DNA of 64,000 nucleotides from Parcubacteria bacterium C7867-007 (GCA_001189195.1 LFCQ01000003.1:141645-205644), one strand, 5' to 3'. Positions 3,035 through 53,662 are shown, numbered from the stretch's first letter. Numbers and translations are program-made. The notes: generated by a model from the letters alone, not told the origin.

Positions 3035-3106
3035 CCTATTATGTCAATACGGCCCGAGGGGTCGTTTTAAGTTACTTTTTGGGGAGAATACCAGGTGGAA
3101 TCAACT

Positions 3107-3670
3107 ATGAAAGGTCCGGTAACGGAAGCCGGCTATCGGCGGCAGGAGTGCCGTGTGAATACGGCGAAGACTATCCTCAACCGGTGCACCGATGAACTCA
3201 CCGGCGACCGCTGCGGGGAAAACTCCACAGGGGAGGGAAAGGCCATCGACCGCGCTTGCGCGGGCACTGAGCGGGATACCGCTCGGGCGAGATGGGAGGC
3301 TGAAGTGAGAACACTGAACAGCATCTCGATCGCTCAGGAACCCACCGCCAACTGCCACGTGTGCACCGGGCATCCGGTGACCATCAAGTGGATCGATCCA
3401 CCGGCCAAGAAAAAGGTTGGGGAGACCGAAACGGTGATCCTGGGTGGCTTCGGCGAGAGCTGGGACAACGTGGACCACGACGGCACCGTGCTGGGCCCTC
3501 CAACACGGAGCTATAATTCGCCGTTCGGTTCGGCTCTGAAGGGAGCTGCTATGGGCGACGAGCCCTACTTCATGGGTCCTGGCCACAATGGGTCTCGACC
3601 TGTCGAGCTCTGTTTCAAGGTTCTTGCGATCGGCGAAACACGCATCGCCGAGCTGCAGGCTGCAGCGTAA
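3107..3670 (+). CDS. hypothetical protein encoded on a GC-rich (~60%) island
   Basis: ATG at 3107 sits 8 nt downstream of AGGTGG; the upstream GTG at 3095 lies inside the RBS. The frame shows strong GC3 periodicity, unlike the flanking genes. The opposite-strand ORF 3101-3694 is Arg/Ser/Leu-rich antisense noise. The protein has 4 Cys in the first 70 aa and an NCHVCTGHP segment. No family recognised. Confidence 0.5.
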   Translation: MKGPVTEAGYRRQECRVNTAKTILNRCTDELTGDRCGENSTGEGKAIDRACAGTERDTARARWEAEVRTLNSISIAQEPTANCHVCTGHPVTIKWIDPPAKKKVGETETVILGGFGESWDNVDHDGTVLGPPTRSYNSPFGSALKGAAMGDEPYFMGPGHNGSRPVELCFKVLAIGETRIAELQAAA

Positions 3671-3689
3671 GCTGCCTGTCCAGAAGGAC

Positions 3690-3728
3690 AACATATGTGC
3701 GCCGCGGATCGTTGGGGTCCGCGGCGTT
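3690..3728 (+). terminator. rho-independent terminator closing the GC-rich island, 37 nt upstream of trpS
   Basis: 9-bp stem cgccgcgga/tccgcggcg with a 9-nt loop, followed by ttctctttttt. Confidence 0.6.
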
Positions 3729-3764
3729 CTCTTTTTTATATTCAGCCTGTGCTATCGTAGGGTC

Positions 3765-4718
3765 ATGAACGCAGACAAGCTTGTACTCCTCTCCGGCATT
3801 AAGCCAACTGGTGAGATTCATATTGGTAACTATTTTGGTGCTATTAAGCAATTCGTTGAACTCCTTAATGATGATTCTCATCAGGGATTTGTATTTATTG
3901 CGGACTACCACGCACTTAATTTCATACAGGATGCTGCAGAGATGAAGCGCCTTACGCGGAATCTCGCACGCACCTATATCGCTTGCGGCCTTGATCCAGA
4001 GAGGGTTGTTCTCTTTAAACAGTCTGATGTTTCAGCACATACGGAGCTTGCGTGGATCTTCGACACCATAACCACCATGCCATATCTCATGCGTGCACAT
4101 GCATTCAAAGACGCGGAGGCAAAGAACAAGGAGATTGTGGTGGGTACCTTTAACTACCCAATGCTCATGGCAGCAGATATTCTTCTCTATAACGCATCAG
4201 TGGTACCTGTGGGACAAGACCAGAAGCAGCATATTGAATACGCACGTGATACTGCAGAGAAGTTCAATCGTATCTTTGGTGAAACATTCCGTCTTCCGGA
4301 ACCACATATTCTTTTAGACGTTGCAGTGGTACCAGGTATCGATGGACGCAAGATGAGCAAGAGCTACGAGAACACTATCCCGCTGTTTGCATCTCGTGAT
4401 GAGATCACTGAGGCAGTTATGGGCATCGTCACTGACTCTAGTGGTGACCGTCCTGAAAACGTATACGCAATCCATCGCCTTATTAAGACCGACGAAGAAC
4501 TTGCGTCGCTGTATGAAGAACACAAGGGCAAGTACAAAGCACTGAAGGAAGCACTCATCGAGGATCTTGATACATTCATTGCGCCAATGCGCGAGCGATT
4601 TGAAGCACTCACTACAGATGCAGAAATAGATGAGATTCTTCACAAAGGAGGTGCCCTTGCGCGTGAGCGTGCTGAGGCTAAGATGGATGAAGTCCGTCGA
4701 GCAATCGGCGTCCGCTAG
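3765..4718 (+). CDS. trpS: tryptophanyl-tRNA synthetase
   Basis: Start taken at MNADKLVLLSGIKPTGEIHIGNYFGA (HIGH-type motif IHIGN), with KMSKS at KMSKSYEN. The 5' in-frame extension back to 3588 overlaps the upstream terminator and GC-rich gene, so I rejected it. Confidence 0.88.
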   Translation: MNADKLVLLSGIKPTGEIHIGNYFGAIKQFVELLNDDSHQGFVFIADYHALNFIQDAAEMKRLTRNLARTYIACGLDPERVVLFKQSDVSAHTELAWIFDTITTMPYLMRAHAFKDAEAKNKEIVVGTFNYPMLMAADILLYNASVVPVGQDQKQHIEYARDTAEKFNRIFGETFRLPEPHILLDVAVVPGIDGRKMSKSYENTIPLFASRDEITEAVMGIVTDSSGDRPENVYAIHRLIKTDEELASLYEEHKGKYKALKEALIEDLDTFIAPMRERFEALTTDAEIDEILHKGGALARERAEAKMDEVRRAIGVR

Positions 4719-4730
4719 AGGAGGTCTTTC

Positions 4731-4934
4731 GTGCCCCAAGTTACATTCACTGGTGAGAATCACTATGGTCAATTGGCCAGGTGGCGCACGTCGATGGCGA
4801 GCCGTTTCGAAGGCTTTGCCATTCTTGAACACAGGAACAAGGTAGGGACGGTTACGGTCGACTACTTCATCCCTGAAGATTCAGCCACCACAGACACCAC
4901 TTGTCCCTGCTGCGGCAGGGGGCCCGGAGCCTAG
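4731..4934 (+). CDS. small hypothetical protein (67 aa) with Cys-rich C-terminus, GTG start
   Basis: GAGGAGG lies 7 nt upstream of GTG at 4731, directly after the trpS stop. GC3-rich frame. The C-terminus is TTDTTCPCCGRGPGA. The stop codon lies in the loop of a downstream hairpin. Confidence 0.45.
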   Translation: MPQVTFTGENHYGQLARWRTSMASRFEGFAILEHRNKVGTVTVDYFIPEDSATTDTTCPCCGRGPGA

Positions 4935-4955
4935 CGGTTCCGGGTCCTACTTTTA
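4923..4955 (+). terminator. putative rho-independent terminator
   Basis: cccgga-(10 nt loop)-tccggg, followed by tcctacttttac. Confidence 0.45.
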
Positions 4956-4974
4956 CATGCTATTTTAGTGATAT

Positions 4975-6306
4975 ATGGAACGAACGCTCATAGGGGAGCT
5001 TAGCAGCAAAGCAGGCGAAACTATCACTATCAACGGATCAGTGGATGTTCGCCGTGATCAGGGCAAGCTCGTATTCTTCGACTTCCGGGACCGCTCAGGC
5101 ACCGTGCAGGGAGTCGTGCTTCCTGGCAATGAGGTTCTTATGGAGATTGCAAAGACCGTTCGCAACGAATTCATCGTGAGTGTTAGCGGTATCGTTAACA
5201 AGCGCCCTGAGAAGAACATCCAAGCTGATAAACAGAACGGAGACATTGAGCTTGAGATTAAGGAGATCGAGGTACTTTCTTCTGCAGACATACTACCCTT
5301 TGAGCTTGATGCGGAACTCAACCTCGACACCTATCTCGACTATCTTCCACTAACTCTTCGTACTAAGCGGGCTCGCGCTATATTCAAGGTGCAGTCTGAG
5401 ATTGCTCGTTCATACCGCGCATTCCTTAACAGCGAAGGGTTTATTGAATTCCAGGCACCAAAACTTATTGGTGATGATGCAGAGGGAAGTGGAGAAGTGT
5501 TTGAGGTTCCGTACTTCTACGGAAAGACAGCACACCTTGCAACAAGCCCGCAGCTCTATAAGCAGATCATGGTGGGTGCGCTCGAGCGCGTATTCAGCAT
5601 CGGCATCGTATTCCGTGCAGAGAAACACAGTACCGCTCGTCACCTGAACGAATACACATCTATGGATGTGGAAATGGGATACATCACCGATCATCGTGAT
5701 GTGATGAAGATGGAGAACCGTCTCATGCAGTATATTGCTGCCGACCTGCAGAAGAACTGCTCTGCAGAATTCACTCTCCTGGGAGCAGAAGTACCCGTGG
5801 TGCCAGACGAGATTCCTTCTATGAAGTTACGCGCGGCACAGGAACTAATCTTTAAAGAAACAGGGAAGGATAATCGTAACGAACCAGATCTTGAGCCTGA
5901 GGATGAACGTTGGCTTTGTGAATGGTCAAAGAAAGTACATGATTCTGATTTCGTATTCGTAACACACTATCCTGTTTCAAAGCGTCCCATGTACACCACG
6001 GAGGACCAGACTGACCCTGGCTTCACCAATGGGTTTGATCTTCTGTTCCGTGGTGTTGAGATCACTACGGGTGGGCAGCGACGTCATGAGTATCAGAATC
6101 TTATAGACGGTATCAAAATGAAAGGCCTTGATCCTGAGAAGTTCTCGTACTACCTTCAAGCCTTCAAGTACGGTATTCCTCCTCATGGGGGATGGGGAAT
6201 GGGCCTTGAGCGCCTCACCGCAAAGTTCCTTGGTCTTGCAAACGTAAAGGAAGCAACGCTATTCCCTCGTGACATCAACCGTATCGACACGCTTCTTTCA
6301 GACTAA
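4975..6306 (+). CDS. aspS: aspartyl-tRNA synthetase, archaeal/eukaryotic-type class IIb (possibly non-discriminating)
   Basis: 443 aa with an N-terminal OB fold. Motif 2 is FRAEKHSTARHLNEYTSMDVEM and motif 3 is GGWGMGLERL. Its length and motifs fit the short AspRS form rather than the long bacterial form. Confidence 0.82.
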   Translation: MERTLIGELSSKAGETITINGSVDVRRDQGKLVFFDFRDRSGTVQGVVLPGNEVLMEIAKTVRNEFIVSVSGIVNKRPEKNIQADKQNGDIELEIKEIEVLSSADILPFELDAELNLDTYLDYLPLTLRTKRARAIFKVQSEIARSYRAFLNSEGFIEFQAPKLIGDDAEGSGEVFEVPYFYGKTAHLATSPQLYKQIMVGALERVFSIGIVFRAEKHSTARHLNEYTSMDVEMGYITDHRDVMKMENRLMQYIAADLQKNCSAEFTLLGAEVPVVPDEIPSMKLRAAQELIFKETGKDNRNEPDLEPEDERWLCEWSKKVHDSDFVFVTHYPVSKRPMYTTEDQTDPGFTNGFDLLFRGVEITTGGQRRHEYQNLIDGIKMKGLDPEKFSYYLQAFKYGIPPHGGWGMGLERLTAKFLGLANVKEATLFPRDINRIDTLLSD

Positions 6307-10863: not shown

Positions 10864-11298
10864 ATGGAATGCCGTAAAGGGATCGATTATACAGGAATCA
10901 GTGTTGCGTTTTCATGTCACGATGGTGAAGGGAATTATCTTCTCTCCAAAAGAACAGACCAGTGCCGAGATGAGCATGGAAGATGGGAGTCAGGAAGTGG
11001 TGCGGTAGATCTTGGTGAGGATGTTATAGAAGCTTTAATTAAAGAGATTTCTGAGGAATACGGAACCAAACCCATCAGTTATGAGTTTATAGGGTTCCGT
11101 GACCTGCATCGAGAGCATAATGGAGAACAAACTCATTGGCTCGCCATAGACTTTAAGGTACTGATTGATCCAGCCACAGTGATTAACGCTGAGCCACACA
11201 AACATGATGAGATTGGGTGGTTCAAGTTGGGTGCATTTCCAGAGCCGCTTCACTCGCAACACCCAGCATATTTAAAGAAATACGAAGAAATCCTCTAA
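10864..11298 (+). CDS. NUDIX hydrolase
   Basis: Nudix box GSGAVDLGEDVIEALIKEISEEYG matches GX5EX7REUXEEXGU. Confidence 0.8.
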   Translation: MECRKGIDYTGISVAFSCHDGEGNYLLSKRTDQCRDEHGRWESGSGAVDLGEDVIEALIKEISEEYGTKPISYEFIGFRDLHREHNGEQTHWLAIDFKVLIDPATVINAEPHKHDEIGWFKLGAFPEPLHSQHPAYLKKYEEIL

Positions 11299-25691: not shown

Positions 25692-25702
25692 AGAGTTAAA
25701 AA

Positions 25703-25741
25703 CAAAAGAACCTAGTTATGCTAGGTTCTTTTGTTTTTTAT
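25703..25741 (+). terminator. rho-independent terminator after the pilin gene
   Basis: Perfect 13-bp stem caaaagaacctag/ctaggttcttttg with loop ttatg, followed by ttttttat. Confidence 0.8.
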
Positions 25742-25791
25742 AGACGAGAATGATTGTTCTATGCTCTAATACTTTTGGAAAGGAGATCGTT

Positions 25792-26028
25792 ATGGGCTCA
25801 TGGAAAAATGCACACACCAGCGCACTCCGGGCTAGGGATGCTCTTCAAGGACCGCACCAGGTCGCACACCATGCACCAGGACGTATTACAGACTTCGCCA
25901 TCGGTGATTTGGTTCGCGTTGTAAAGACTGGTGTCACCGCACGAGTGACAGGCAAGACATCCTGGGGTGACCATTATCTCGAGGGACTTCCTAACTTCTA
26001 CTCGGGCTCTCAGCTAGAGAAGGCCTGA
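25792..26028 (+). CDS. small hypothetical protein (78 aa)
   Basis: AAGGAG 7 nt upstream of ATG. Moderately GC-rich. Contains a GDLVRVVKTGVTARVTGKT segment. An 11-bp-stem terminator follows at 26043-26069. Confidence 0.45.
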   Translation: MGSWKNAHTSALRARDALQGPHQVAHHAPGRITDFAIGDLVRVVKTGVTARVTGKTSWGDHYLEGLPNFYSGSQLEKA

Positions 26029-26173
26029 GAAGATGACCAGAATCCCTGGTATGGGCGCCTTTGCTCAACAAAGGCGCCCTCTATCGTCACTTTTGACTTT
26101 CTATAAAAAATCATTATTATAAGTTTCAGTACCAGAGTTCCTATCAACAACATAGACCGAAAGGACATGCTTG

Positions 26174-27622
26174 ATGCACCGCATCATTCCCGATTGGACC
26201 AGATGGGCGGTACCCATACTAGGGATACTTTCCATTCTGGTCTTTGTGCCCTCGCTGATCTACTTCAGCCGGGCAAACGATCACCAGGACTACAGCAAGG
26301 TTCCTGCACTCACCCCAGCACAATACACTGCTGAGGTGAAGGCAATCGTTGCCGCTACATACGCGGCTCCGACTGAGGACCCTGCGGACTACTACCGTAC
26401 GGCGATTCGCGCTCAGAACTTCAACGTTATGGAGGAGCGCTTCCGTCGTGATCACCCTGCCGAATGGCAGAGACTCGCGCACAAGCGTTCCGCCAGCATG
26501 ACGTTCAACGTCGGGCTCTTGATGAATGAGTACGAACAGAAGTTCGGCCATTCAACAATGGTGGATACTGCGGACCGTATGCGTCCGTGGATGAACGAGC
26601 AGATCGGATCGATTTCAGCACCCCCGGACCAAGTCCGGCTGGACAAGGCAGGCTGGTGGTTCGTTCGTGGATACATCATGTGTGTTCTGCTCAGCGTGCT
26701 GTTCTACATGGCGCGTCTCAAGCAGGAAGGCATGCTGATCTGGCCCGAGATGACCACAGGCTTCCTGTTCTTGGCCGCGTTCACTGGCCTTGGCGTCGTC
26801 ATGATCTACCCTCGGAACATCGATCCAATCGTGCAGATCAAGCGGGCCTGGCGATTCATCGCTGGTCTCGCTGCTGGTTCCATCTCGCTTGCGGGAATGG
26901 CTGGCATGGCTAACGCGCGAGAACGTCTGGAAAGCAGCGCGGCCGAGAACGCCAAGGTGTTTATCCTTCCGTTCGTTCCGATGCCTGAGTTCTCGTTCTC
27001 AAGTGGTGTCATGTCGTCAAAGGTGACTGGCAACGGCACCCGCGTCAACGATGGCATCACGTACACCGGTGGTGTGCACGCAGCCTTCGCTGGTGGCGTG
27101 GACTTGGATCTGTCCGGCACCAGGCAAGCTACGGGCAACGCGTCGGATGAGATCGACTACACCATCTCGAAGACGATGAAAGGAAAGGCAGGGTCGGTTA
27201 CGGCCGGCTTCGCCTATTTCGATATCGTCCCGGTGGGCAGAAGCAAGGGAGGCGACATGATCTCCCCCTTCATCAGTCTCGAGCACAAGCTCGGGTACGG
27301 CCTGACGGCCTTCGCGAAGGCGGACGGATACTTCCTAACGCACGGACCTCCAACCAACAATGGCTTCGACGTGATTGCCGGACTCAAGGGAAGCACGCAA
27401 GTGCGCTCTCTGAGGTTCGATCACTCCGTCTCGGCCGTTCTGAGCGACGGTCCGTTCGGACAGTCTGCAGGCACGACCCTGCGCTTCGACGAGGCAATCT
27501 CAGTGCCCGTCACAAAGCGTCTGCGGGCTTCCACCAATTTCAAGCTCTTCGTTCCTATCCAAGGATCGAAAGGTCGAGAAATGGACGTCTCTGGCGGCCT
27601 CGGTCTGAACTACGCGTTCTAA
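26174..27622 (+). CDS. GC-rich (~58%) hypothetical membrane protein with a beta-rich C-terminal domain ending in an OMP-like aromatic residue
   Basis: AAAGGA RBS. N-terminal TM plus three central TM helices. The C-terminal ~230 aa show alternating hydrophobic beta pattern and end in GLGLNYAF. GC3-rich codons. Confidence 0.55.
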   Translation: MHRIIPDWTRWAVPILGILSILVFVPSLIYFSRANDHQDYSKVPALTPAQYTAEVKAIVAATYAAPTEDPADYYRTAIRAQNFNVMEERFRRDHPAEWQRLAHKRSASMTFNVGLLMNEYEQKFGHSTMVDTADRMRPWMNEQIGSISAPPDQVRLDKAGWWFVRGYIMCVLLSVLFYMARLKQEGMLIWPEMTTGFLFLAAFTGLGVVMIYPRNIDPIVQIKRAWRFIAGLAAGSISLAGMAGMANARERLESSAAENAKVFILPFVPMPEFSFSSGVMSSKVTGNGTRVNDGITYTGGVHAAFAGGVDLDLSGTRQATGNASDEIDYTISKTMKGKAGSVTAGFAYFDIVPVGRSKGGDMISPFISLEHKLGYGLTAFAKADGYFLTHGPPTNNGFDVIAGLKGSTQVRSLRFDHSVSAVLSDGPFGQSAGTTLRFDEAISVPVTKRLRASTNFKLFVPIQGSKGREMDVSGGLGLNYAF

Positions 27623-27645
27623 CCGATCAACAGCTTCGACTACTG

Positions 27646-27681
27646 ATCTACTTGGGCCCGGCAACAAAAGCCGGGCCCTTT
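27646..27681 (+). terminator. rho-independent terminator
   Basis: gggcccggc-aacaaaa-gccgggccc followed by ttttcattta. Confidence 0.7.
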
Positions 27682-30115: not shown

Positions 30116-30397
30116 ATGGCACATACAAAGGCTGGAGGATCAACAAAGAACGGACGCGACTCAAACCCTAAATTCCTCGGGGTGAAGCTCGCTGCAGGCC
30201 AGGAGGCACGTCCAGGCATGGTTATCGTACGCCAGCGCGGTACCAAGGTTATGGCAGGTCAGAACGTGAAGGTCGGAAAAGACCACACACTTTACTCTAT
30301 GATTTCGGGTATCGTCTCTTTCCGCGACAAGCGTAAGACCAATTTTGATGGTCGTGTGGTACGCCGTAAGGTGGTAGACGTCCTCGCTTCCGCATAA
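30116..30397 (+). CDS. rpmA: 50S ribosomal protein L27
   Basis: [24 protein letters not shown]...IVRQRGTK...GKDHTLY is the canonical L27 sequence. Confidence 0.92.
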
Positions 30398-30545: not shown

Positions 30546-31754
30546 ATGCAAAGTGTCCGAAACTGGTGGACGCTAGCTTTCAGCGTCTTCACCCTCATCC
30601 TGATGCTAAGCCTTCCCGGCTTGGCAGAAGCCAAAGATCTCGGTCCAAACGGCCTCAGGGCCGCCTGCACCACCGACCTGCTCAAGCACGTCGGCATGAA
30701 TAACGAGGAGGCCAGACGCCTTCCCGTTGGATTCAAGGTGAGCTACATGAACCGGGAGTTCAAGCTCACCAAGAGTCCGCCGAAGTCCCTCTGGGGCGTC
30801 TGTGAGATCCTCGTCAAAGACGGGGTCTACACCAACGCGAACGTCTTGCATAGCACTGCACCGGCGAAGCCTCCGATTCCGGAAGCGAAGCCTGTGCCTG
30901 CTCCCAAGCCGCCCGTGGCCGCAACGCCGCCGGCACCTGAAGCTGCTCCTGTGGCGCCTTCTCCGCCGAAAGCCGAAACGCCCGTCGCTGAGCCGCCCAA
31001 AGCAGCAAAAGCGCCGGAACCGACGGCTGACACGCCGCCTGTATACGGATCGCCCACCATCGTCGACAAGATGTGGTTCGCGACCCGTGACTTCTTCGGT
31101 GGACTGAACGATTGGCGGAAGCAACATCCCGTCATCGCATCGTCCATCGGAATACTGATCATTCTGATTCTGATCGGTCTCTTCTTCTTCATAAAATGGC
31201 GGGGCGAAGGTTCGGCTGAAACTGATGAGGAAGATGAAGATGAGGTGGAGCAGACTCACGATGAGAACGCTCCTGACTACGTCGACTACGAAACCATACT
31301 CCCGATTGCCGCAGCTGAAGAAGCTGCACTCGAACAACCGCCGATCCCGCACTACATGGTGCTCTCGGACGACGAGTTCGAGAGACAAGCCGTGGCTGCA
31401 GGTTTCGGTCCCAAGGCATCCGAAACAACCCAGAAGCGCTATCGCGCAGGGCTCGCTGTGATCGGTTTCCGTCCGGACAAGGAGGAAGCCCAACGACGAG
31501 GAAAGCTCGTCGACTCGCGCAGCGTGGAAGAGGAGTTCGATTTCCAGGACGCTAACGACAATGACGAAGTCACCACCGAAGCTCCTTCGATCGAACCCTT
31601 GCCTGATCTACCCCCTCTCACCGATCAAGAGCGGGCGGCGATCGGCGAAGACCTTGCTGCTGCCAGAATGATCGTCAACGAACATAAGGCCGCAACTCGC
31701 GGTACCGGTGTTCCGGAACCGTTTTCCGACAAGCTGGCCGGCAAGCCCATCTGA
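30546..31754 (+). CDS. GC-rich (~60%) single-pass membrane protein with a Pro/Ala-rich linker and an acidic C-terminal tail
   Basis: Start at MQSVRNWWTLAFSVFTLILMLSLPGLAEA (signal peptide). A PAPKPP/PEA-rich linker, TM helix VIASSIGILIILILIGLFFFIKW, then a D/E-rich tail. Confidence 0.55.
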   Translation: MQSVRNWWTLAFSVFTLILMLSLPGLAEAKDLGPNGLRAACTTDLLKHVGMNNEEARRLPVGFKVSYMNREFKLTKSPPKSLWGVCEILVKDGVYTNANVLHSTAPAKPPIPEAKPVPAPKPPVAATPPAPEAAPVAPSPPKAETPVAEPPKAAKAPEPTADTPPVYGSPTIVDKMWFATRDFFGGLNDWRKQHPVIASSIGILIILILIGLFFFIKWRGEGSAETDEEDEDEVEQTHDENAPDYVDYETILPIAAAEEAALEQPPIPHYMVLSDDEFERQAVAAGFGPKASETTQKRYRAGLAVIGFRPDKEEAQRRGKLVDSRSVEEEFDFQDANDNDEVTTEAPSIEPLPDLPPLTDQERAAIGEDLAAARMIVNEHKAATRGTGVPEPFSDKLAGKPI

Positions 31755-31816
31755 GCCCTAGGCTCACTCGCAGACACCTATTTCGCAGCATAGAGCTGCA
31801 CTCGCACACAAAGAAG

Positions 31817-42031: not shown

Positions 42032-42035
42032 TCCT

Positions 42036-42063
42036 TTGACTTTTAGTGCGTCGGCACTATTAT
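42036..42063 (+). promoter_or_regulatory. sigma70-like promoter (TTGACT-16-TATTAT)
   Basis: Near-consensus -35 and -10 with 16-nt spacing, immediately downstream of the yqeY stop. Confidence 0.45.
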
Positions 42064-42095
42064 ACCGACAGTACCCACGGCGACGGAGAATTCCG

Positions 42096-42479
42096 GTGAC
42101 CAGGTTCGTTCCCTACAGTGAAGTTACCCGCGAAGAAATTCGTACGGGCATTAAGCACGCAAGCTCGAAGCATCATCTGATGTTCAGTCTTGAAGAAGAC
42201 AAGGCACGGAGAATTGCCAACCGAGCGGGCAGAAATATGCACGAGAGGAACTGGAAACGCGATCGGGCGATACCAGAAGCTGTTCAAAGCGTGCTTGCTC
42301 CCGACTCGCGCAGCGGGATCTATGCTAAGGCGTACAATTCTGTCGTTTCGAAGATCTTCAGCGACCGAAGCGCCAAGGCTCGCAAACACGCAGCTTTGCT
42401 TCGCCGCCAAGCGAGTGCACCGTATCGGCCTCCAGTGCAACTGAGCTTCCGCTTTGTACTGGACAAGCCTCTTCGGTGA
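42096..42479 (+). CDS. small basic (Arg/Lys-rich) hypothetical protein; start uncertain (GTG at 42096 with GGAG RBS, or ATG at 42180)
   Basis: Self-contained unit with promoter, RBS, ORF and terminator hairpin (ggccgc...gcggcc followed by tttctcg at 42483-42510). GC-richer than its neighbours. Confidence 0.35.
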   Translation: MTRFVPYSEVTREEIRTGIKHASSKHHLMFSLEEDKARRIANRAGRNMHERNWKRDRAIPEAVQSVLAPDSRSGIYAKAYNSVVSKIFSDRSAKARKHAALLRRQASAPYRPPVQLSFRFVLDKPLR

Positions 42480-42533
42480 GAATTGATGGCCGCTGTCTTT
42501 GGACGGCGGCCTTTCTCGTACTACAGTAGGGGG

Positions 42534-43343
42534 ATGAAGAAGTACGTAGTACTACACAAAAGAATAGGTCAGACACCTCTCGAGACCATTCAAGAGTGGC
42601 AGGAGAGGAATCCTAAATACTCTGATATACCTGCCACCTACGCAGGACGTCTTGATCCTATGGCTAGTGGTGTATTGCTCGTGCTACTTGGAGAGGAGTG
42701 CAAGAAGAAAGATAAGTATCTTGGGTTAGACAAAGAGTATGAGATTGAAATACTTCTAGACCTTTCAAGTGACACAGGTGATGTGCTTGGTATTATTTCA
42801 GATACAGAGACATGCAGTACTCCATCTCTTAATGAAGTGCAGAAGGCATGCAAAAAGGAAGTTGGTTCTCAAACACTCCCCTACCCTGCCTTCTCTTCTA
42901 AAACAGTTGATGGTGTTCCACTATTCCTCCACTCACTTCGGGGAACGCTAAGTAGTATTGAGATCCCAACGCACACTGAAACATTTCATTCAATTAAAGT
43001 TAGCTCTTTAGCAAACATTACGAGCGAACAACTACAGAAGCGTGTTACCGAAATGCTTGCGGTAGTTCCTCATTCAGACGAACCTACGAAAGAGCTAGGG
43101 GCTGATTTCCGTATACATGCTGTTCGGAACTCATGGACTACCGTCCTCCTTCAACCTGAACGAACCTTCACTCTTATTCGTCTACGGGTTACTTGTGGTT
43201 CTGGTGCGTATATGCGTACTCTTGCAGAACGCATCGGTGTCTCTCTTGGTACTACAGCACTCGCACTGTCTATTCATCGAACCCGTATGGGTACCCGTAC
43301 CTCCTTTGGTCCCCTATCTGTTTGGACAAAGCTGTATTCCTAA
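42534..43343 (+). CDS. truB: tRNA pseudouridine(55) synthase TruB-like
   Basis: Catalytic Asp motif AGRLDPMASGVLLVLLGE. Confidence 0.82.
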   Translation: MKKYVVLHKRIGQTPLETIQEWQERNPKYSDIPATYAGRLDPMASGVLLVLLGEECKKKDKYLGLDKEYEIEILLDLSSDTGDVLGIISDTETCSTPSLNEVQKACKKEVGSQTLPYPAFSSKTVDGVPLFLHSLRGTLSSIEIPTHTETFHSIKVSSLANITSEQLQKRVTEMLAVVPHSDEPTKELGADFRIHAVRNSWTTVLLQPERTFTLIRLRVTCGSGAYMRTLAERIGVSLGTTALALSIHRTRMGTRTSFGPLSVWTKLYS

Positions 43344-43345
43344 CA

Positions 43346-43375
43346 TTGACATTTATTAAATACAGGGTGTATAAT
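43346..43375 (+). promoter_or_regulatory. consensus sigma70 promoter (TTGACA-18-TATAAT)
   Basis: Exact consensus hexamers, directly after the truB stop and 22 nt upstream of the RBS of the small gene. Confidence 0.6.
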
Positions 43376-43397
43376 ACTTGCAGGTTAGGAGCACGCT

Positions 43398-43595
43398 ATG
43401 GATATGAAGGAGCTACAAGAGATTGTCTCTCGCGCCTTCAGCGGGAGCGTCTCATCAGACGACCCGATCACCAAAGCCATCGCGGTAGTGGTGATCATAG
43501 TTATTTTCGTGTGGGCAGGGACTTCGTCCCACACCCGCGTTAAGAAGCAGCGTGAACACGCAAAACGCGGGTATTATGACTTTCGCAGGAAGTAA
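43398..43595 (+). CDS. small single-TM protein (65 aa)
   Basis: AGGAG 7 nt upstream of ATG. Hydrophobic core AIAVVVIIVIFVWAG and a basic C-terminus. Followed by a terminator. Confidence 0.55.
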   Translation: MDMKELQEIVSRAFSGSVSSDDPITKAIAVVVIIVIFVWAGTSSHTRVKKQREHAKRGYYDFRRK

Positions 43596-43601
43596 CTGCT
43601 G

Positions 43602-43640
43602 CCCCCAGACAACTGTCTGGGGGTTATCGTTTCCCTTTGA
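43602..43640 (+). terminator. rho-independent terminator
   Basis: 10-bp stem cccccagaca/tgtctggggg followed by a T-rich tract. Confidence 0.7.
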
Positions 43641-43703
43641 CCGTTTATACAAATAATTGTATATTCACAGCGGACGTTTTTCACAACTTGAGGGGTATCA
43701 CCC

Positions 43704-45578
43704 ATGAAACTCATCGCAATCTTAGTGATACTCTTCTCCCTGTTCAATGTGGAGGTGAGCTACGCGAAGGACAAGCCGATCGGTGGCCTCTGTGGAGGTT
43801 CGTTTGTTGGCTCCAACACCTGCGTATGGAATGAAGACACTCACGAGTGGACCGAAACGTACGTGGGCTGGGACAACTGGGAATGGCAAGCTATCTCCGA
43901 TCAGCCTGAACGAGCGGACACCATCCGCCGGATGCATCTTCCCCGGCAGGTGCCGGTCGAGAAGAAATACTCGGTCAGCCTGAACACGGAAGCGTGCCTG
44001 AAGCCGGAGTATCAGCTCCTGCTTAGCGCTGCGGTTCTGCTACCTTCGAATCGAAAACCAATCACGGCTTCGCGTCGTGTGGTGATCATAAACGTTGAAG
44101 GTGGAGATTGGCCTGAAGAATCTCGCATCTGGCCGCACCTCGGTATCAACTACGTGGGCACAGTCGCGAAGCAAGAAGGATACGAGGTTGTTCTGTACGA
44201 TGAACTCATTCAAGGGCGCAAGCCACTGAAGGAGATTGTTCGTCCGGGAGACATCGTTGGCCTGAGCCTTGTGACCACCGGCATCGAGCGCGGCGTTATC
44301 GTCGCACAAGAAGCCAAGGTGCTCGGCGCCTGCTATGTGATCGCTGGAAATGACTCCGCAATGTTCCGTGCCAGACAGCTCCTTGAGCTACCTGGTCGGC
44401 CCATTGATGCCGTCTTCACCAGCAACAGTGTCGTCACCATCCGGGAGTTCTTCCGGAATGCCGACGCAGTGATCGCAGATTCAATGCAGATCGAACAAGT
44501 GGCAACAGCGCCTGAACAGGTACCATACGTTTCCAACGAGCATGACGGAGTTGCGCTCGAACGGAAAGCATACACCGCAGAAGACTTCTTCTTGGTCCCT
44601 GATCTCTCGCTCTTCAGCGACGAGTACTGGGAACTCGTTCGCGCTGCGTATCGTTCGCAGTTCGGACACAAGCACCAAGACTCTGCTAACGTTCACAATG
44701 CCATCGCACTTCTCGCGCAAGGCTGTGGACGAGCAGGTATGGGAGACATCTGTGACTACTGCACCATCCGCCACGTGGCGAATGTGGTTCAACCCTCGCC
44801 TGGGTATCTTGAGGAAACTCTCGCTACATACCGGGCACACGGCGTGAACACGTTCTTCAATGTGACAGACTCGGCCTTTGAGATGGGAGTGCTCGCAAAA
44901 CAGCTCGAAGAAGCTGGTCCTGTGGATACACTCATCATCTACGGTCGGGCGCAGGCTATCGCGCAGCGTCCTGATCTTCTTGAACGCTGGAAGAGTTGTG
45001 TGAGCGAACGACTGCTCATCAACTGCGGTATGGACTCAGGAGATGAACGTATCCTGCAAACCGGCATTCACAAGTCCGGAAGCAAGGTTGGGTCTCGTCT
45101 CCAGGAAAACTATAGGACTCTCGCTAATATTAAGGCGGCGGGACCTAAGGTTCATCTGCATTTCTCGGTGATCTTCGGTTCTCCCGGAGAGACCCATGAG
45201 TCGTGCGAAGCCACACTGCAGTTTGTACAGCATGCTATCGACACACTGGGTGAACAACTCGATGTCGTTGAGGGCGATGTCTTCTGGGTTAACTTCGGAG
45301 CACCGTGCAGCGAAATCTTCACGAACTACGAAGCGACACAGAAGCGTGCTGCACTTGCTGGGAAAACTATCTCCCAGGATGAGTGGCAACAGTGCTTTGG
45401 TCGTCACGCAGACGAACTTGTCGTGCCGGAGGAGTCCCAACAAGCTTGGTATGCCTTCTTCACGAACATCACCATCGAAGATGCGTGGGCATACAACGCT
45501 CAAGTTCGTGAGATGCTGACGCAAGTTCCTGGACATATCACGGGCCGTGAATATGCGTTCAGACCACCAACGGTGTGA
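43704..45578 (+). CDS. B12-binding-domain radical SAM-like protein (class B family) with an N-terminal signal-peptide-like segment and an atypical Cys motif
   Basis: GAGGGG RBS. N-terminus MKLIAILVILFSLFNVEVSYA. B12-binding-like Rossmann segment VVIINVEGGDWPEESRIWPHLGINYVGTVAKQEGYEVVLYD. Cys triad AQGCGRAGMGDICDYC (CX9CX2C rather than CX3CX2C). Class-B radical SAM downstream motifs INCGMDSGDERILQTGIHKSGS and AAGPKVHLHFSVIFGSPGETHESCEATLQF. GC about 55%. Confidence 0.6.
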   Translation: MKLIAILVILFSLFNVEVSYAKDKPIGGLCGGSFVGSNTCVWNEDTHEWTETYVGWDNWEWQAISDQPERADTIRRMHLPRQVPVEKKYSVSLNTEACLKPEYQLLLSAAVLLPSNRKPITASRRVVIINVEGGDWPEESRIWPHLGINYVGTVAKQEGYEVVLYDELIQGRKPLKEIVRPGDIVGLSLVTTGIERGVIVAQEAKVLGACYVIAGNDSAMFRARQLLELPGRPIDAVFTSNSVVTIREFFRNADAVIADSMQIEQVATAPEQVPYVSNEHDGVALERKAYTAEDFFLVPDLSLFSDEYWELVRAAYRSQFGHKHQDSANVHNAIALLAQGCGRAGMGDICDYCTIRHVANVVQPSPGYLEETLATYRAHGVNTFFNVTDSAFEMGVLAKQLEEAGPVDTLIIYGRAQAIAQRPDLLERWKSCVSERLLINCGMDSGDERILQTGIHKSGSKVGSRLQENYRTLANIKAAGPKVHLHFSVIFGSPGETHESCEATLQFVQHAIDTLGEQLDVVEGDVFWVNFGAPCSEIFTNYEATQKRAALAGKTISQDEWQQCFGRHADELVVPEESQQAWYAFFTNITIEDAWAYNAQVREMLTQVPGHITGREYAFRPPTV

Positions 45579-45598
45579 GTGAATATAGATAACTGACC

Positions 45599-45630
45599 CC
45601 GCGTCTTTATGGCGTGGGGTTCTTTGTATA
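45599..45630 (+). terminator. rho-independent terminator after the radical SAM gene
   Basis: ccccgcg-(9 nt)-cgtgggg followed by ttctttgta. Confidence 0.55.
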
Positions 45631-45680
45631 AAAGATGAGATTCAAATGCAAAAGCCGCCTTTCGGCGGTATTTGCTCGTG

Positions 45681-45752
45681 TGACCCTACGGGGAATCGAA
45701 CCCCGATTTCCTGCGTGAGAGGCGGGCGTCCTAACCGTTAGACGATAGGGCC
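45681..45752 (-). tRNA. tRNA-Glu (anticodon CTC), CCA not encoded
   Basis: Reverse complement GGCCCTATCGTCTAACGGTTAGGACGCCCGCCTCTCACGCAGGAAATCGGGGTTCGATTCCCCGTAGGGTCA. The acceptor pairs 7/7 (one G-U). tRNA-Glu-type D-arm. Anticodon loop CUCUCAC (U33, CUC, A37) with one C-A mismatch in the anticodon stem. T-arm CGGGG-UUCGAUU-CCCCG. A hairpin gccgcc-tttc-ggcggt followed by a T tract lies downstream on the minus strand. Confidence 0.75.
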
Positions 45753-45832
45753 ATGCAATTGGTTATACCAGAGAAGTGAGTACAAGAAAAGTGACGCACC
45801 ATTCAGGCGCGCCACATTCTTCACTACTTAGC

Positions 45833-46138
45833 TTAGCGTTGGTACCGCCGCATTCGGCAAGGCGATACCTGTCCTTCGAAATCTCTCAGGATCATGTACC
45901 CCGAGGGAAGGATCTCGAGGATCTCATACCCAGTACCGGGCGCATTGAGAAACACCGCTGATCCCCCAACCCTAAACCCCTGTACTTCGATGGCGGCCAA
46001 GCGTGCATCACGCAATGAGCCAACCTTTGGTCCAGAAGGTTTTCGAAGCTGCTCATCCACCGTGCGGAAAGTGAGAGAAGTTACCATCTCTCGAAACTGC
46101 CCTCTACCGTTAGTCTTGTACATCTTTGCGAACCCCAT
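45833..46138 (-). CDS. hypothetical protein adjacent to tRNA-Glu
   Basis: GGAGAG RBS before the second ATG. About 101 aa with no recognised family. Confidence 0.35.
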   Translation of the reverse strand: MGFAKMYKTNGRGQFREMVTSLTFRTVDEQLRKPSGPKVGSLRDARLAAIEVQGFRVGGSAVFLNAPGTGYEILEILPSGYMILRDFEGQVSPCRMRRYQR

Positions 46139-46200
46139 TACGTTTCTCTCCAACTAACCTACCGGGCACTATACTCCCCTTTCAGTATTTGTATAGCAAC

Positions 46201-50897: not shown

Positions 50898-50935
50898 TAG
50901 TGTTGTGGCAGCGGTTTAAGGGGAATGCAATTCAT

Positions 50936-50982: not shown

Positions 50983-51167
50983 CCTGCCCTATTTATCCCC
51001 ACAACTAAGGGTTATTTGTCCTTTGACAGTAGTGCTCTAAGCAATGTATGCTGGGAACACATGGTTTCATACGTCCGTTACTTTATCTTCAAGCATATCT
51101 TCGGCCTAACCCCGGTCGAGGTTTCGATTGAGATTTCTAAGTAGCAGGACTTCCCCACAGAAATTTG

Positions 51168-51202
51168 AATCGAGGCTTTGACCACCGGTCAAAGCCTCGA
51201 TT
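51168..51202. repeat. 35-bp perfect palindrome (16-bp arms, 3-nt centre), a candidate operator or RNA hairpin
   Basis: AATCGAGGCTTTGACC-ACC-GGTCAAAGCCTCGATT, located about 40 nt upstream of the 51242 ORF in the mraZ-divergent intergenic region. Confidence 0.55.
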
Positions 51203-51241
51203 CGTTTGTACCTTCATAGCAGAAGAAGAGGGAGAAAAGTA

Positions 51242-51763
51242 ATGTTGCAACAAGTTGAGTATGCAATTTCGTTGATTGACCTCAGGGCAATGGCGGTATA
51301 CGGCCGCCTAGCAGAGACACTGGGGCAAATGGTTGCCTTCTATAACCAGGGAGAGCTGAGCCAGCATGTGCAGCTACAGCTGATCGAAGAGGATGAGAGT
51401 GGCGAACTAGCTCCTGCTCCGACCAGTTCCGTTGCGCTGTTCACGTGCACCACGATACACACATTCCCGAATAGGTTCTTTAGGGTTATTACACCCGCAA
51501 ACCGTGACGGCACAGCAAGTCGCGCGGCGTTAGGTCCTCACGTTCCGGAATGGGCGAGATCTTCTCGGATTCAAGTGGCGATTAATCCTGGAGTGAGTCT
51601 GGACAGGGTCGACAAGACCTTAAGGCGTCCTTGTCTCGATATCGCGTGCAGGCATCTGCACCGCGACTTGGGAGGGGTATCGCAACCCAAGAAGAAACGT
51701 GTTCCCTACTCTTCGGGGCATCGTGCACAACGCGATCGACCCTACTTCTTTGAACTGTGCTGA
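51242..51763 (+). CDS. hypothetical protein (GC-rich ORFan, 173 aa)
   Basis: GGGAGAAAAG RBS before ATG at 51242. Followed by a strong terminator at 51789-51821 (gatggcgccc-tttgc-gggcgccatc followed by a T run). Confidence 0.45.
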   Translation: MLQQVEYAISLIDLRAMAVYGRLAETLGQMVAFYNQGELSQHVQLQLIEEDESGELAPAPTSSVALFTCTTIHTFPNRFFRVITPANRDGTASRAALGPHVPEWARSSRIQVAINPGVSLDRVDKTLRRPCLDIACRHLHRDLGGVSQPKKKRVPYSSGHRAQRDRPYFFELC

Positions 51764-51788
51764 CTTTCTTGTCTCTACGAATAAAAGC

Positions 51789-51821
51789 GATGGCGCCCTT
51801 TGCGGGCGCCATCTTCTTTTT
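51789..51821. terminator. bidirectional rho-independent terminator
   Basis: 10-bp perfect stem and a T-run of 8 on plus. Also T-rich on the minus side, serving lysS. Confidence 0.75.
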
Positions 51822-51824
51822 GTA

Positions 51825-53294
51825 TTAGTCGCTACGAGGTCTCATGAGTGGGAAGATCTGTCCTTCACGAATAGATACTCCTTCCATGACACTGAAGAGT
51901 CTTTCAGATACTCCGAAACCGAATGCGGGTGGCATACCGTATTCAAGAGCCTCCACGTATGAGATGTCATTCATCTGCGCTTCGTCATCACCCTGGTCAC
52001 GCAGTTCCTGCTGATGTGCAAAACGTCCTGCCTGATCGATAGGATCATTGAGTTCAGTGAATCCCTTGCCCATCTCAGAACCTCCAAGGATCACTTGGAA
52101 TCGCTCCACCACACGATCATCTTCCTTGCTGCGCTTTGCCAATGGCTCCATGTATGCAGGGACACCAATGAGGAAACCAGGACCAGAGAGTCCTTTGCGT
52201 ATCTGCTTCCAGAGGAGATCGATACCTCGTTCCTTATTGAATCCATCTTCAGGAACAGGAATACCCGCCTTCTCCATTGCTTTCCCCACTTCCGCTGCAT
52301 CAGTTTCAAGCGGATCAACACCGAAGGATTCTTTGATAAGAGCGCAATAGTTATAAGTCTGCCATGCAGCACCGAAGTCCACCTCCACATCCTTGATGGT
52401 GAAGATACGAGTGCCATATACCTCATCAGCAATAGTGCGGTACAGGTCGGTGATCATGTTCATGCCGTGGCGATAGTCTTCAAACGCTTCGTAGAATTCA
52501 AGTTGGGTGTAGTCCTGAGCATGTTCAAAGGACATACCCTCGTTACGGAAGATACGACCGATCTCAAAAACTTTAGGGAGTCCAGCCACCATCAATCGCT
52601 TCTGCCAGAGCTCACCTGCTGAAATACGGAGATACACATCGATGTCGAGTGCGTTGTGATGGGTAACAAAGGGGCGCGCATCTGCCCCACCTGTAGTAGT
52701 TTCAAGTACCGGTGTCTCAACTTCAACAAACCCCTTCTTAAGGAGGTACGTACGAATAACATTCCAGAATAGGGAGCGACGGCGAATACGATCTGCTGTT
52801 TCTTTGGAGAGAAGAATATCCAAATATCGCTTTCGGAAGCGTTCATCTTCATCTTTAATACCGTAGAACTCGTCTGGTACGGGAGTAAGAGACTTCGCAA
52901 GCATGCGCCAACTTGCTGCTTGCAGTGAACGCATACCACGCTTGGTGGTGAATGCAAAACCAGGTACCTCGATGATATCTCCCGTATCAACCGCCTGTTT
53001 AAATAGTTCAAACAACTCCTGCTTGAGATCTGCGTCTTGTTGAAGGACCACTTGAGCTTTCTCAGTACCATCAAAGAGATCAACGAACATAACTCCTCCT
53101 TGATCACGGATGCTCATGATGCGTCCTGCGATTGTAATAAGTGCGTGTTCACGCTCAAGCGCCTGATGCTTGTACATGAAATCACTGAGGGTATGCGAGC
53201 GGTTCACCTGTGCAGGATATGCCTCCATCCCCGCCTCTTTAAGCGTCTCTATCTTAGCGAGCCGCTCTTTGCGGATCGTTTCTACATCTGCCAT
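51825..53294 (-). CDS. lysS: lysyl-tRNA synthetase (class II)
   Basis: Start at MADVETIRKERLAKIETLKEAGMEAYP. OB fold plus class II motifs. Confidence 0.88.
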   Translation of the reverse strand: MADVETIRKERLAKIETLKEAGMEAYPAQVNRSHTLSDFMYKHQALEREHALITIAGRIMSIRDQGGVMFVDLFDGTEKAQVVLQQDADLKQELFELFKQAVDTGDIIEVPGFAFTTKRGMRSLQAASWRMLAKSLTPVPDEFYGIKDEDERFRKRYLDILLSKETADRIRRRSLFWNVIRTYLLKKGFVEVETPVLETTTGGADARPFVTHHNALDIDVYLRISAGELWQKRLMVAGLPKVFEIGRIFRNEGMSFEHAQDYTQLEFYEAFEDYRHGMNMITDLYRTIADEVYGTRIFTIKDVEVDFGAAWQTYNYCALIKESFGVDPLETDAAEVGKAMEKAGIPVPEDGFNKERGIDLLWKQIRKGLSGPGFLIGVPAYMEPLAKRSKEDDRVVERFQVILGGSEMGKGFTELNDPIDQAGRFAHQQELRDQGDDEAQMNDISYVEALEYGMPPAFGFGVSERLFSVMEGVSIREGQIFPLMRPRSD

Positions 53295-53388
53295 ATGTCC
53301 CCAGATTAGCACATGTTGCGTTCCATTTGTTTAGTTGTATGGTTCCTATAGAGGCCAGCACTCGGCAGGCACCTCCAGGAGGAACAAG

Positions 53389-53592
53389 ATGCTGAAGGTC
53401 TTCTTTTGTACTTTACTGCTGTCTCTGGCGTGCCTGATTGGCTTCGTCATCAGCACCATTTCGCCGGCGGCCCTGTTCGCCCCCATCAAGGAACCGACGC
53501 TTCTGTGGTCTGGCATGATCTTCTTCTCCACGATCGCCGCGGTCTGTGGTTCCCTATACCTGATCAAGATGGAGCTGAGCAAGCCAAAATAG
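53389..53592 (+). CDS. small two-TM membrane protein (67 aa), GC-rich
   Basis: AGGAGG RBS 6 nt upstream of ATG. Followed by the bidirectional terminator 53610-53655 (aacctccgcg-ttaacac-cgcggaggtt). Confidence 0.5.
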   Translation: MLKVFFCTLLLSLACLIGFVISTISPAALFAPIKEPTLLWSGMIFFSTIAAVCGSLYLIKMELSKPK

Positions 53593-53662
53593 AAGGCAGT
53601 GGCCTCCAATCAAAAAGAAAACCTCCGCGTTAACACCGCGGAGGTTCCTTCTTTACATTGTG

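Follow-up and report, generated by a model that had tools for sequence, protein, structure and literature searches.

Between the housekeeping operons of Parcubacteria bacterium C7867-007 (Paceibacteria; locus tags AB202_), whose 702-kb, 48% GC (guanine plus cytosine) genome was assembled from the metagenome of oxic Hanford groundwater (PMC4508563), a stretch of 64,000 nucleotides, here called the window, contains ten GC-rich segments that hold eleven free-standing, mostly monocistronic protein-coding genes (units 1 to 10, the seventh comprising 7a and 7b). On balance, and with modest confidence, we regard these genes as lineage-restricted Patescibacterial genes seated in slots of gene turnover or allele replacement, whose elevated GC content at third codon positions (GC3) is either old or maintained, most likely through exchange or recombination within a GC-richer Paceibacteria gene pool. 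The gaps between operons would be the places where genes turn over or alleles are replaced, their contents would be exchanged or recombined within a pool whose average GC exceeds the 48% of this genome, and the exchange would keep the genes GC-rich, possibly aided by GC-biased repair of recombination intermediates. Both this mechanism and the functions proposed for the proteins (surface or partner interaction, transcription factor, methyl/alkyl chemistry) we infer from the comparisons described below.

The GC content of the window is 48.65% overall, 47.7% outside the ten segments and 55.6% inside them. An earlier reading of the sequence, hereafter the original prediction, had described all ten as GC-richer than the backbone, and so they are, at 52.8-59.1% (Table 1), with two of them lying within ordinary variance. 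When each segment is ranked against same-length windows wholly outside the listed segments, a comparison whose percentiles are flattered by boundaries that were chosen by the reader, four (3040-3745, 26174-27690, 30546-31800 and 43346-45640) exceed the maximum found outside, four more (4719-4960, 25792-26090, 42032-42510 and 51242-51820) reach the 99.3-99.7th percentile, and the two ordinary ones, 45833-46140 and 53389-53655, stand at the 96.4th and 93.9th. All eight 300-nt-window runs of at least 58% GC fall in listed segments, and 23 runs of at least 53% GC occur in core genes, so that a threshold of five points above the backbone does not by itself separate islands from core. For single genes, the 61 backbone open reading frames (ORFs) of the window, with a GC of 0.480 +/- 0.028 and a GC3 of 0.445 +/- 0.056 (maximum 0.59), give as reference z-scores for GC3 of 4.7, 4.7, 3.8 and 2.7 for units 1, 4, 5 and 7b, and of 6.0, 3.7 and 3.4 for units 10, 7a and 2 (the sampling standard error of GC3 in unit 10 being about 0.06), with units 6, 8 and 9 near 2 and unit 3 near 1. 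Units 1, 2, 4, 5, 7a, 7b and 10 thus qualify as GC-deviant genes in the sense of a GC3 more than 2-3 standard deviations from the gene distribution. The excess lies mostly at third codon positions and is limited to the ORFs, the upstream spacers having 41-45% GC. Lineage-specific genes that are AT-rich also occur in the window, at 34678-35358 (40% GC), 38853-39749 (44%) and 10864-11298 (44%).

The age of this pattern is indicated by C7867-008, a sister species from the same sample that has 49% GC in the compared region and is collinear with the window from 19.9 to 54.7 kb (units 1 and 2 lie outside it) at about 80% nucleotide identity. The alignment breaks six times in all, at units 3 and 4 together, in the middle of unit 5, and at units 7a, 8, 9 and 10 (Table 1). 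Five of the six non-aligning segments are GC-rich in the window, the exception being that of unit 7a, at 48%; GC richness extends to the sister counterparts of units 5, 8, 9 and 10. The gene that the sister carries in a non-aligning slot resembles that of the window in size, orientation and type, yet the two are only 23-36% identical, compared with 72-98% across the backbone; only the slot of units 3-4 differs in content. Synonymous divergence (dS) between the two backbones is 0.8 to more than 2, near saturation, and the backbone genes of both genomes have a GC3 of 0.37-0.50. Because GC3 has nonetheless been kept gene by gene (Table 1), the GC pattern of units 5-10 is older than the split between the two species, has escaped decay and does not stem from recent acquisitions. 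The repeated piecemeal acquisition first proposed does not survive this comparison, since units 5-10 occupy the same slots and are equally GC-rich in a sister near synonymous saturation; units 3-4 alone differ, and their differing gene content implies at least one real gain or loss. The sister in turn has genes of its own at inter-operon slots, a NUDIX hydrolase gene next to the LOG-family gene (L089 7245-7682) and a 235-aa (amino acid) ORF between the genes for GreA and a penicillin-binding protein (PBP; L086 20473-21180), and gene turnover therefore runs both ways.

Signals of transcription and translation accompany the composition. Of the eleven strongest promoter-like matches within the first 60 kb (at least 10 of 12 positions), six lie immediately upstream of island ORFs (sigma-70-like; at 3015, 26093, 42036, 43346, where all 12 positions match, 43637 and 51023), a clear GGAG-type ribosome-binding site (RBS) precedes nine of the eleven island ORFs, those of units 4 and 5 being weaker, and nine of the eleven (units 1, 2, 4, 6, 7a, 7b, 8, 9 and 10) end in a hairpin of 9-13 pairs with a T-run behind it, in agreement with the earlier claim that most units have their own promoter or RBS and a rho-independent terminator. 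The accompanying description of the products as ORFan, membrane or secreted proteins is roughly apt, hydrophobic segments being present in five of the eleven, and fails for the GreA-like and radical-SAM proteins (units 1 and 7b), which are not ORFans. Units 2, 3, 7a, 8, 9 and 10 encode proteins of 65-173 aa that belong to no known family, and neither Pfam nor NCBIfam gave a match for units 2, 3, 6, 8, 9 and 10 or their sister counterparts. Structured RNA was considered for units 1, 2, 8 and 10, which are GC-rich and have ORFs open on both strands; the RBS motifs and the sister comparisons favour coding. Rfam detected two tRNAs only, both in the whole window at the gathering threshold and in 2800-5000 at E<=1.

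Table 1. Islands and adjoining tRNA genes of the window, with base composition, flanking signals and breaks in the alignment with the sister species (coordinates in the window; GC3 as window/sister where both are available)
Feature	Extent	Strand	Listed segment (GC)	ORF	GC3	Promoter-like site	Terminator	Alignment break	Remarks
tRNA-Tyr (GUA)	2899..2984	+							ARAGORN, Rfam; directly upstream of unit 1
Unit 1	3015..3727	+	3040-3745 (59.1%)	3107-3670	0.71	3015-3042 (TTGCCA-16-TATTAT)	3699-3727 (hairpin)		
Unit 2	4719..4948	+	4719-4960 (55.8%)	4731-4934 (GTG start)	0.63		4919-4948 (hairpin overlapping stop codon)		GGAGG RBS 4720-4724
Unit 3	25792..26028	+	25792-26090 (54.8%)	78 aa (92 aa from start 25750)	0.51			25519-27701 (with unit 4)	Soluble; no known family
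Unit 4	26093..27678	+	26174-27690 (57.4%)	26174-27622	0.71	26093-26120 (TTGACT-16-TATTAT)	27654-27678	25519-27701 (with unit 3)	
Unit 5	30546..31754	+	30546-31800 (58.6%)	402 aa	0.66/0.67			30824-31752 (mid unit)	In gap between L27 and L9 genes
Unit 6	42036..42511	+	42032-42510 (54.5%)	42096-42479 (GTG start)	0.57/0.61	42036-42063 (TTGACT-16-TATTAT)	42488-42511		
Unit 7a	43346..43624	+	43346-45640 (53.1%, with unit 7b)	43398-43595	0.65	43346-43375 (perfect consensus, TTGACA-18-TATAAT)	43601-43624	43331-43601	
Unit 7b	43637..45621	+	43346-45640 (with unit 7a)	43704-45578	0.60/0.66	43637-43665	45595-45621		
tRNA-Glu (CUC)	45680..45752	-							ARAGORN, Rfam; between units 7b and 8; same position in sister
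Unit 8	45791..46195	-	45833-46140 (53.2%)	46138-45833	0.57/0.54	46195-46168	45815-45791	45797-46144	
Unit 9	51242..51813	+	51242-51820 (53.5%)	51242-51763	0.56/0.55	51023-51052 (upstream)	51789-51813 (bidirectional)	51235-51784	
Unit 10	53389..53648	+	53389-53655 (52.8%)	53389-53592	0.78		53618-53648 (bidirectional)	53351-53614	

Unit 5 extends the argument to more distant relatives. Its product has a signal peptide, a conserved N-terminal domain with two cysteines, a Pro/Ala-rich linker, one transmembrane (TM) segment and an acidic C-terminal tail; the gene has a GC of 0.587, and GC3 climbs to 0.77 in the conserved N-terminal domain (0.80 in the sister). The sister orthologue, 36-38% identical, was the only match of a word-based search, and the N-terminal domain is homologous to proteins from the same slot, between the L27 and L9 genes, in four relatives (L019, L035, L018 and L015). 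In seven relatives' loci this slot is 2.5-7.5 points GC-richer than the core genes. It accounts for seven of the 14 most GC-enriched among 193 non-core segments of at least 500 nt from 105 relatives' loci; non-core DNA there otherwise averages 3.6 GC points less than the core genes next to it, and just 2% of the segments lie more than 5 points above them. High GC is therefore intrinsic to the unit 5 family, in genomes whose own GC ranges from 51 to 66%. A separate observation concerns the DNA just before unit 5: J055_10000592 and J055_10002129, two Joint Genome Institute (JGI) contigs of the same sample, meet at about 30100-30157, in the divergent promoter region between 29619-30113 (minus strand) and the L27 gene, which suggests a branch of the assembly graph just upstream of unit 5, perhaps reflecting strain variation.

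Pfam scans and precomputed Pfam lists identify the backbone as housekeeping genes, among them those for aminoacyl-tRNA synthetases (TyrRS, TrpRS, AspRS, GluRS, CysRS), chromosome maintenance and replication (ScpA/B, DnaB, RecR, RmuC), cell wall and division (MraY, FtsW, MurG, MurE, PBPs, RsmH, MraZ, MreB/C), ribosomal proteins L27, L9 and L21, TruB and GreA. The 80 genomes with a close homologue of the LOG-family gene are all metagenome-assembled genomes of Parcubacteria, Paceibacteria or Kaiserbacteria type; 80 relatives found in a metagenome scan based on TrpRS were used for the slot analysis. Since the loci reached through the LOG gene have about 37-67% GC, mostly 50-63%, C7867-007 stands at the low-GC end of its own clade, its Paceibacteria relatives being mostly GC-richer (50-66%). 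The relative synonymous codon usage of the islands correlates better with core genes of relatives of 55-60% GC (r=0.84) than with their own backbone (r=0.56). In groundwater Patescibacteria, moreover, 83% of detected horizontal gene transfer (HGT) events came from other Patescibacteria and one in about 130 from Actinomycetota (PMC12455944). The fallback offered by the original prediction, that the units are lineage-specific novel genes, fits most of them. It had also held that closest homologues in the same lineage with normal composition would speak against acquisition: the closest homologues do lie in the same lineage, but their composition is not normal, being GC-rich.

Several observations weigh against exchange within a GC-richer Paceibacteria pool. 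Among relatives with a core GC of 0.47-0.52, none of 49 non-core segments is more than 5 points richer than the core, a result that a GC-richer gene pool alone does not predict. A donor was identified for none of the units, the sole homologue of unit 4 sits on a taxonomically unassigned 62% GC contig, and the radical-SAM gene, which is among the GC3-richest of its locus in the closer relatives L172, L175 and L177, shows no such richness in L173 and L174, two loci of more distant relatives. Finally, a two-state amelioration estimate from the dS between window and sister allows an ancestral GC3 of about 0.85 decaying to 0.55-0.65, and this rough estimate thus allows an old foreign origin, at that GC3, before the two species split. 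A bolder form of the exchange reading, which we consider unlikely, is that in this CPR lineage the rule by which accessory DNA is AT-richer than core DNA is reversed at defined inter-operon slots, where hot spots of homologous allele replacement with GC-biased repair would keep hypervariable genes for surface, membrane and small proteins GC3-rich past synonymous saturation; if true, GC3 islands would serve as a sequence-only marker of recombination-driven, possibly host-interaction loci in uncultured ultra-small bacteria.

It is possible, if rather unlikely, that no transfer is involved and that descent has been vertical, the units being genes that evolve fast at loci prone to recombination, where GC-biased gene conversion or a gene-specific bias sets a higher GC3 equilibrium. 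The retention of GC3 gene by gene despite near-saturated dS fits such an equilibrium, as do the coincidence of GC richness with non-alignable segments, the enrichment of the unit 5 family over the backbone in many relatives and the peak of GC3 in the conserved unit 5 domain of both genomes, and a link between recombination and GC3 in bacteria has been described (PMC4450053). Purely vertical descent is harder to square with the presence of unit 4 in only one of the two sisters, with a radical-SAM gene in a neighbourhood other than that of its relatives' homologues, suggesting relocation or re-acquisition, and with the AT-richness of other fast-evolving lineage-specific genes (those at 34678-35358 and 38853-39749). 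The source favoured by the original prediction, repeated recent transfers from a high-GC actinobacterial host to an epibiont in the manner of Saccharibacteria, has become highly implausible. As recent transfers would have it, the GC excess of the islands falls mostly at third positions, units 1 and 7/8 adjoin tRNA genes and units 3-4 differ between the sister genomes. Yet the island GC3, 0.55-0.78, is well under the values above about 0.85 that are typical of high-GC Actinobacteria; units 5-10 are common to the sister, and the families of units 1 and 5 occupy syntenic slots in relatives; integrase or transposase domains and flanking direct repeats were not found in the window; and every named homologue of an island protein is Patescibacterial, none actinobacterial, within the limits set on such a test by unit 4 having one and unit 5 two detectable relatives. 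The organism itself is a Parcubacterium (Paceibacteria) with no known host (PMC4508563), not a Saccharibacterium.

Other explanations dispense with both transfer and recombination. Translational selection on highly expressed units, which would use G/C-ending optimal codons, might be suspected from the near-consensus promoters of several islands and from the L27 and L21 genes, which have the highest backbone GC3 (0.54 and 0.58) and low dS. High-expression codon bias was rejected on codon-level evidence, and we consider it very improbable: the deviation of the islands from the backbone correlates with that of ribosomal-protein genes at only r=0.28 and 0.05, and usage in the islands moves towards every codon ending in G or C, with enrichment of GCG, CCG, TCG, CTG and CGG, which ribosomal-protein genes avoid. 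The codon bias points instead to a compositional cause, and the correlation of r=0.75 between the shifts of large and small islands suggests that strong and marginal islands have a single cause. That correlation also bears on the notion, to us improbable, that the pattern is ordinary variance plus GC-rich terminator hairpins, with the small segments 2, 3, 8 and 10 being non-coding spacers or chance ORFs. The 94-96th percentile ranks of segments 8 and 10, the 23 core-gene runs of at least 53% GC, the ORFs that stay open on both strands in GC-rich DNA and the lack of family matches all suit it; it is opposed by the RBS motifs, by counterparts in the sister, recognised either through protein similarity or as small hydrophobic ORFs that match, and by small-ORF GC3 values well above the backbone (0.63, 0.65 and 0.78), and it leaves units 1, 4, 5 and 7b unaccounted for. 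An assembly or binning artefact, in which pieces of co-resident GC-richer Parcubacteria (C7867-001, 53%; C7867-004, 56%) were spliced in, could be imagined for a metagenome-assembled genome with a JGI contig boundary near 30.1 kb, yet its probability is close to nil, as independent assemblies (JGI contigs and a Logan contig) hold the islands between the same core genes and the same slots are filled in the sister.

Much in this picture of lineage-restricted genes in turnover slots has precedents. Genomic islets, atypical accessory genes gained by HGT within a phylum (PMC12455944), likewise lie between core genes as discrete one- or two-gene units that deviate in GC and codon usage; their contents or sequences vary between close relatives, their homologues are phylum-restricted and, in some cases, tRNA genes adjoin them. 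The units of the window differ in that most are shared with, and equally atypical in, a sister near synonymous saturation, in that they are GC-richer than the core where the relatives' non-core DNA is GC-poorer, and in lacking the apparatus of mobility: no integrase, recombinase or transposase Pfam domain was present among the window genes in precomputed lists or in our own scans, which covered all but the last four ORFs (59871-62706), and no direct repeats of at least 14 nt bracketing the islands were found in the window. Classical integrative islands inserted at tRNA 3'-ends might be thought of for unit 1, which follows tRNA-Tyr (an arrangement also present in the relative L096), and for units 7b and 8, which flank tRNA-Glu, again with no such bracketing repeats. 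The published idea that recombination raises GC3 in bacteria (PMC4450053) is matched by a GC rise at third positions, concentrated where exchange or divergence seems greatest and persistent over long divergence, but the published effect is a modest genome-wide correlation, whereas the islands stand 10-25 GC3 points above background. The C7867-007 genome, 'hypothetical proteins' included, has been publicly available since 2015, and the text of its source paper does not describe the GC-rich-gene pattern. Atypical accessory genes, then, are already known; what is unusual here is the GC-richer direction, the coincidence with hypervariable slots and the persistence past synonymous saturation.

A tempting story of actinobacterial host genes is thereby removed and a testable one about slots put in its place, in which the genes that change fastest between sister species of a 700-kb genome sit in fixed gaps between housekeeping operons, with their own promoters and terminators and a shared GC3-rich signature. 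Should the pattern hold genome-wide, it would provide a cheap listing of candidate cell-surface or partner-interaction genes in uncultured bacteria of the candidate phyla radiation (CPR), and a natural case for studying recombination-linked GC bias in bacteria with minimal DNA-repair sets. Two of the proteins are minor leads in themselves: the additional GreA-like factor and the B12/radical-SAM enzyme, which occurs across the CPR and has a predicted membrane anchor.

The GreA-like factor is the product of unit 1, a soluble protein of 187 aa whose gene (GC 0.61) follows tRNA-Tyr and a terminator-like hairpin at 2993-3026. Its family is rare, with 15 representative sequences or clusters, and the single named homologue is from Paceibacterota. 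PF01272, the GreA_GreB C-terminal domain, is matched by 15 of the 16 aligned family members (best E=5e-12), the window protein itself falling below the cut-off (E=0.043), and the family profile retrieves the canonical GreA that the genome encodes at 53663-54136 with 91% probability and E=9e-7 (hhalign). Unit 1 resembles the RNA-polymerase secondary-channel factors GreA, GreB and Gfh1 in its putative GreA/GreB-type C-terminal domain, its helix-rich N-terminal half, which is conserved in the family alignment, and its length, within the range of about 160-190 aa, and differs from them in its sub-threshold Pfam match and in its rarity. The relative L096 (60% GC; TrpRS 70% identical) has the same gene order, TyrRS, tRNA-Tyr, GreA-like gene and TrpRS, and its GreA-like gene has 62.5% GC against 61% in the window, on backbones of about 60-64% and 48%, respectively. 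The ORF on the opposite strand, 3101-3694, arises as a side effect of the GC-rich coding sequence. The family alignment was too divergent to serve as a query against viral contigs. Two annotation points concern the neighbouring genes: the mechanical ORF of TrpRS, 3588-4718, includes about 59 spurious N-terminal codons that cross the unit 1 terminator, the true start being the ATG at 3765, and ORF 2250-2936, which has a homologue in two relatives (58-59% identity), overlaps the first 38 nt of tRNA-Tyr, so that its true end, or its reality, is uncertain.

Unit 2, which encodes 67 aa of no known family, is probably co-transcribed with TrpRS (3765-4718). Its RNA folding z-score of -3.3 is compatible with coding or non-coding DNA, and a role as T-box leader of AspRS was dismissed, as Rfam gave no match at E<=1. 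The gap between the TrpRS and AspRS genes is usually 8-70 nt in relatives and sometimes 0.3-4.5 kb. Unit 3 is compositionally the weakest case (GC 0.55). In a search among nine sequences its protein was weakly similar to the sister unit 8 protein (E=0.003), and units 3 (25792-26028) and 8 (45833-46138) and sister unit 8 (L086 12126-12434) have a weak C-terminal motif in common, ..GDLV.. / ..LEGFP.F.S.. (E-values of 6e-4 and 3e-3 in that search), so that the three may form a small paralogous family of proteins of about 80-100 aa.

The 482-aa product of unit 4, which starts at ATG 26174 and not at TTG 26171, has four TM-like segments and a C-terminal half in which Gly, Ser and Thr are frequent. 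Its one homologue among 5.8 billion proteins (46% identity; contigs Ga0373488_0009633 and Ga0373489_0039609) adjoins AlaRS; the slot in the sister lacks unit 4 and holds instead a 183-aa ORF and a NUDIX gene. No match was found in a viral-contig scan, and an AlphaFold2 model built from a two-sequence alignment was unusable (mean predicted confidence, pLDDT, 41). Gly, Ser, Thr and Asp abound in the last 210 or so residues, whose final stretch, ...GLGLNYAF (...GLAYAFN in the homologue), to the eye resembles the terminal strand of an outer-membrane beta-barrel; the lineage is thought to be single-membraned, which would make a beta-barrel odd. A 22-nt imperfect direct repeat (86%; 26255-26276 and 27643-27664) spans most of the ORF and may be due to chance.

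Unit 6 encodes a basic protein of 127 aa (21% Lys+Arg) and has a sister orthologue, 66% identical, with conserved promoter and terminator. Differences between the two genes fall 28/25/75 over the three codon positions, and on this count unit 6 is evidently coding and under purifying selection. The deposited call for the sister gene (L086 8426-8845, 139 aa; C7867-008, LFCR01000004.1) is out of the conserved frame, which runs at L086 8404-8784 (tblastn, 66% identity) and is backed by the codon-position differences; the reading frame of the deposited record is probably an error. Unit 7a specifies a 65-aa protein with one TM segment, for which a JGI gene call exists; the sister has a different small one-TM ORF in this slot, where the DNA does not align.

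The 624-aa product of unit 7b, with a hydrophobic N-terminus and 12 cysteines, is B12-binding/radical-SAM-like. Matches to PF02310 (22.6 bits, cut-off 32.1; E=1e-4) and PF04055 (20.6 bits, cut-off 29.5; E=5.5e-4) are weak, yet stand in the order B12-binding then radical-SAM expected of class B (cobalamin-binding) radical-SAM enzymes, to which weak NCBIfam matches also point. The protein departs from that class by falling below the curated cut-offs, by an N-terminal hydrophobic segment followed by an extra region of about 100 aa rich in Cys and Trp, and by its cysteine cluster, which lacks the canonical [4Fe-4S]-binding CxxxCxxC in the core and reads ...GCGRAGMGDICDYC..., that is, C-x9-C-x2-C. 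Residues 1-22 resemble a signal peptide or anchor, the Cys/Trp-rich stretch following within 43704-44000; membrane anchoring or export, if real, would be unusual for a radical-SAM enzyme. Many of the 191 homologues have precomputed PF02310 or PF04055 matches, and those that cover only 80-87% of the query probably lack the N-terminal Cys/Trp-rich region. All eight that bear an organism name are from CPR bacteria (Parcubacteria, Paceibacterota, Berkelbacteria, Uhrbacteria, Microgenomates and 'Patescibacteria group'), and the family appears confined to them; to our knowledge no substrate is known for it. There was no match in the viral-contig scan. The sister orthologue is 88% identical. In relatives the radical-SAM gene has another, conserved neighbourhood (CCA-adding enzyme, an Exo_endo_phos protein, TrmB, XerD and S15), and its relocation or re-acquisition in the lineage of C7867-007 and C7867-008 can be deduced from this difference in gene order.

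The three remaining islands encode small proteins. That of unit 8, soluble and 101 aa long, has a positional counterpart in the sister that is 27-28% identical (E=6e-4 among nine sequences), where the DNA does not align. The soluble 173-aa protein of unit 9 has a sister counterpart of 159-163 aa in the same orientation with a similar C-terminus (25% identical, E=3e-6). Between unit 9 and the region upstream of mraZ lies a perfect palindrome (51167-51203) with 17-bp arms, GAATCGAGGCTTTGACC-GGT-GGTCAAAGCCTCGATTC, downstream of the promoter-like site at 51023-51052 and in sequence alignable with the sister genome; it may act as an insulator or as a terminator for both directions, or form a structure in the 5' untranslated region. 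Unit 10 encodes 67 aa with two TM segments, and its slot in the sister holds a diverged small ORF with hydrophobic stretches, as judged by eye.

A last observation concerns the backbone. Two genes encode class-IIb synthetases with the domain pair tRNA_anti-codon and tRNA-synt_2, one of AspRS type (4975-6306) and one of AsnRS/AspRS/LysRS type (51825-53312) about 25% identical to it, and 59281-59835 encodes a 184-aa protein with only the N-terminal domain of asparaginase; together, the three may bear on Asn-tRNA synthesis in this reduced genome.

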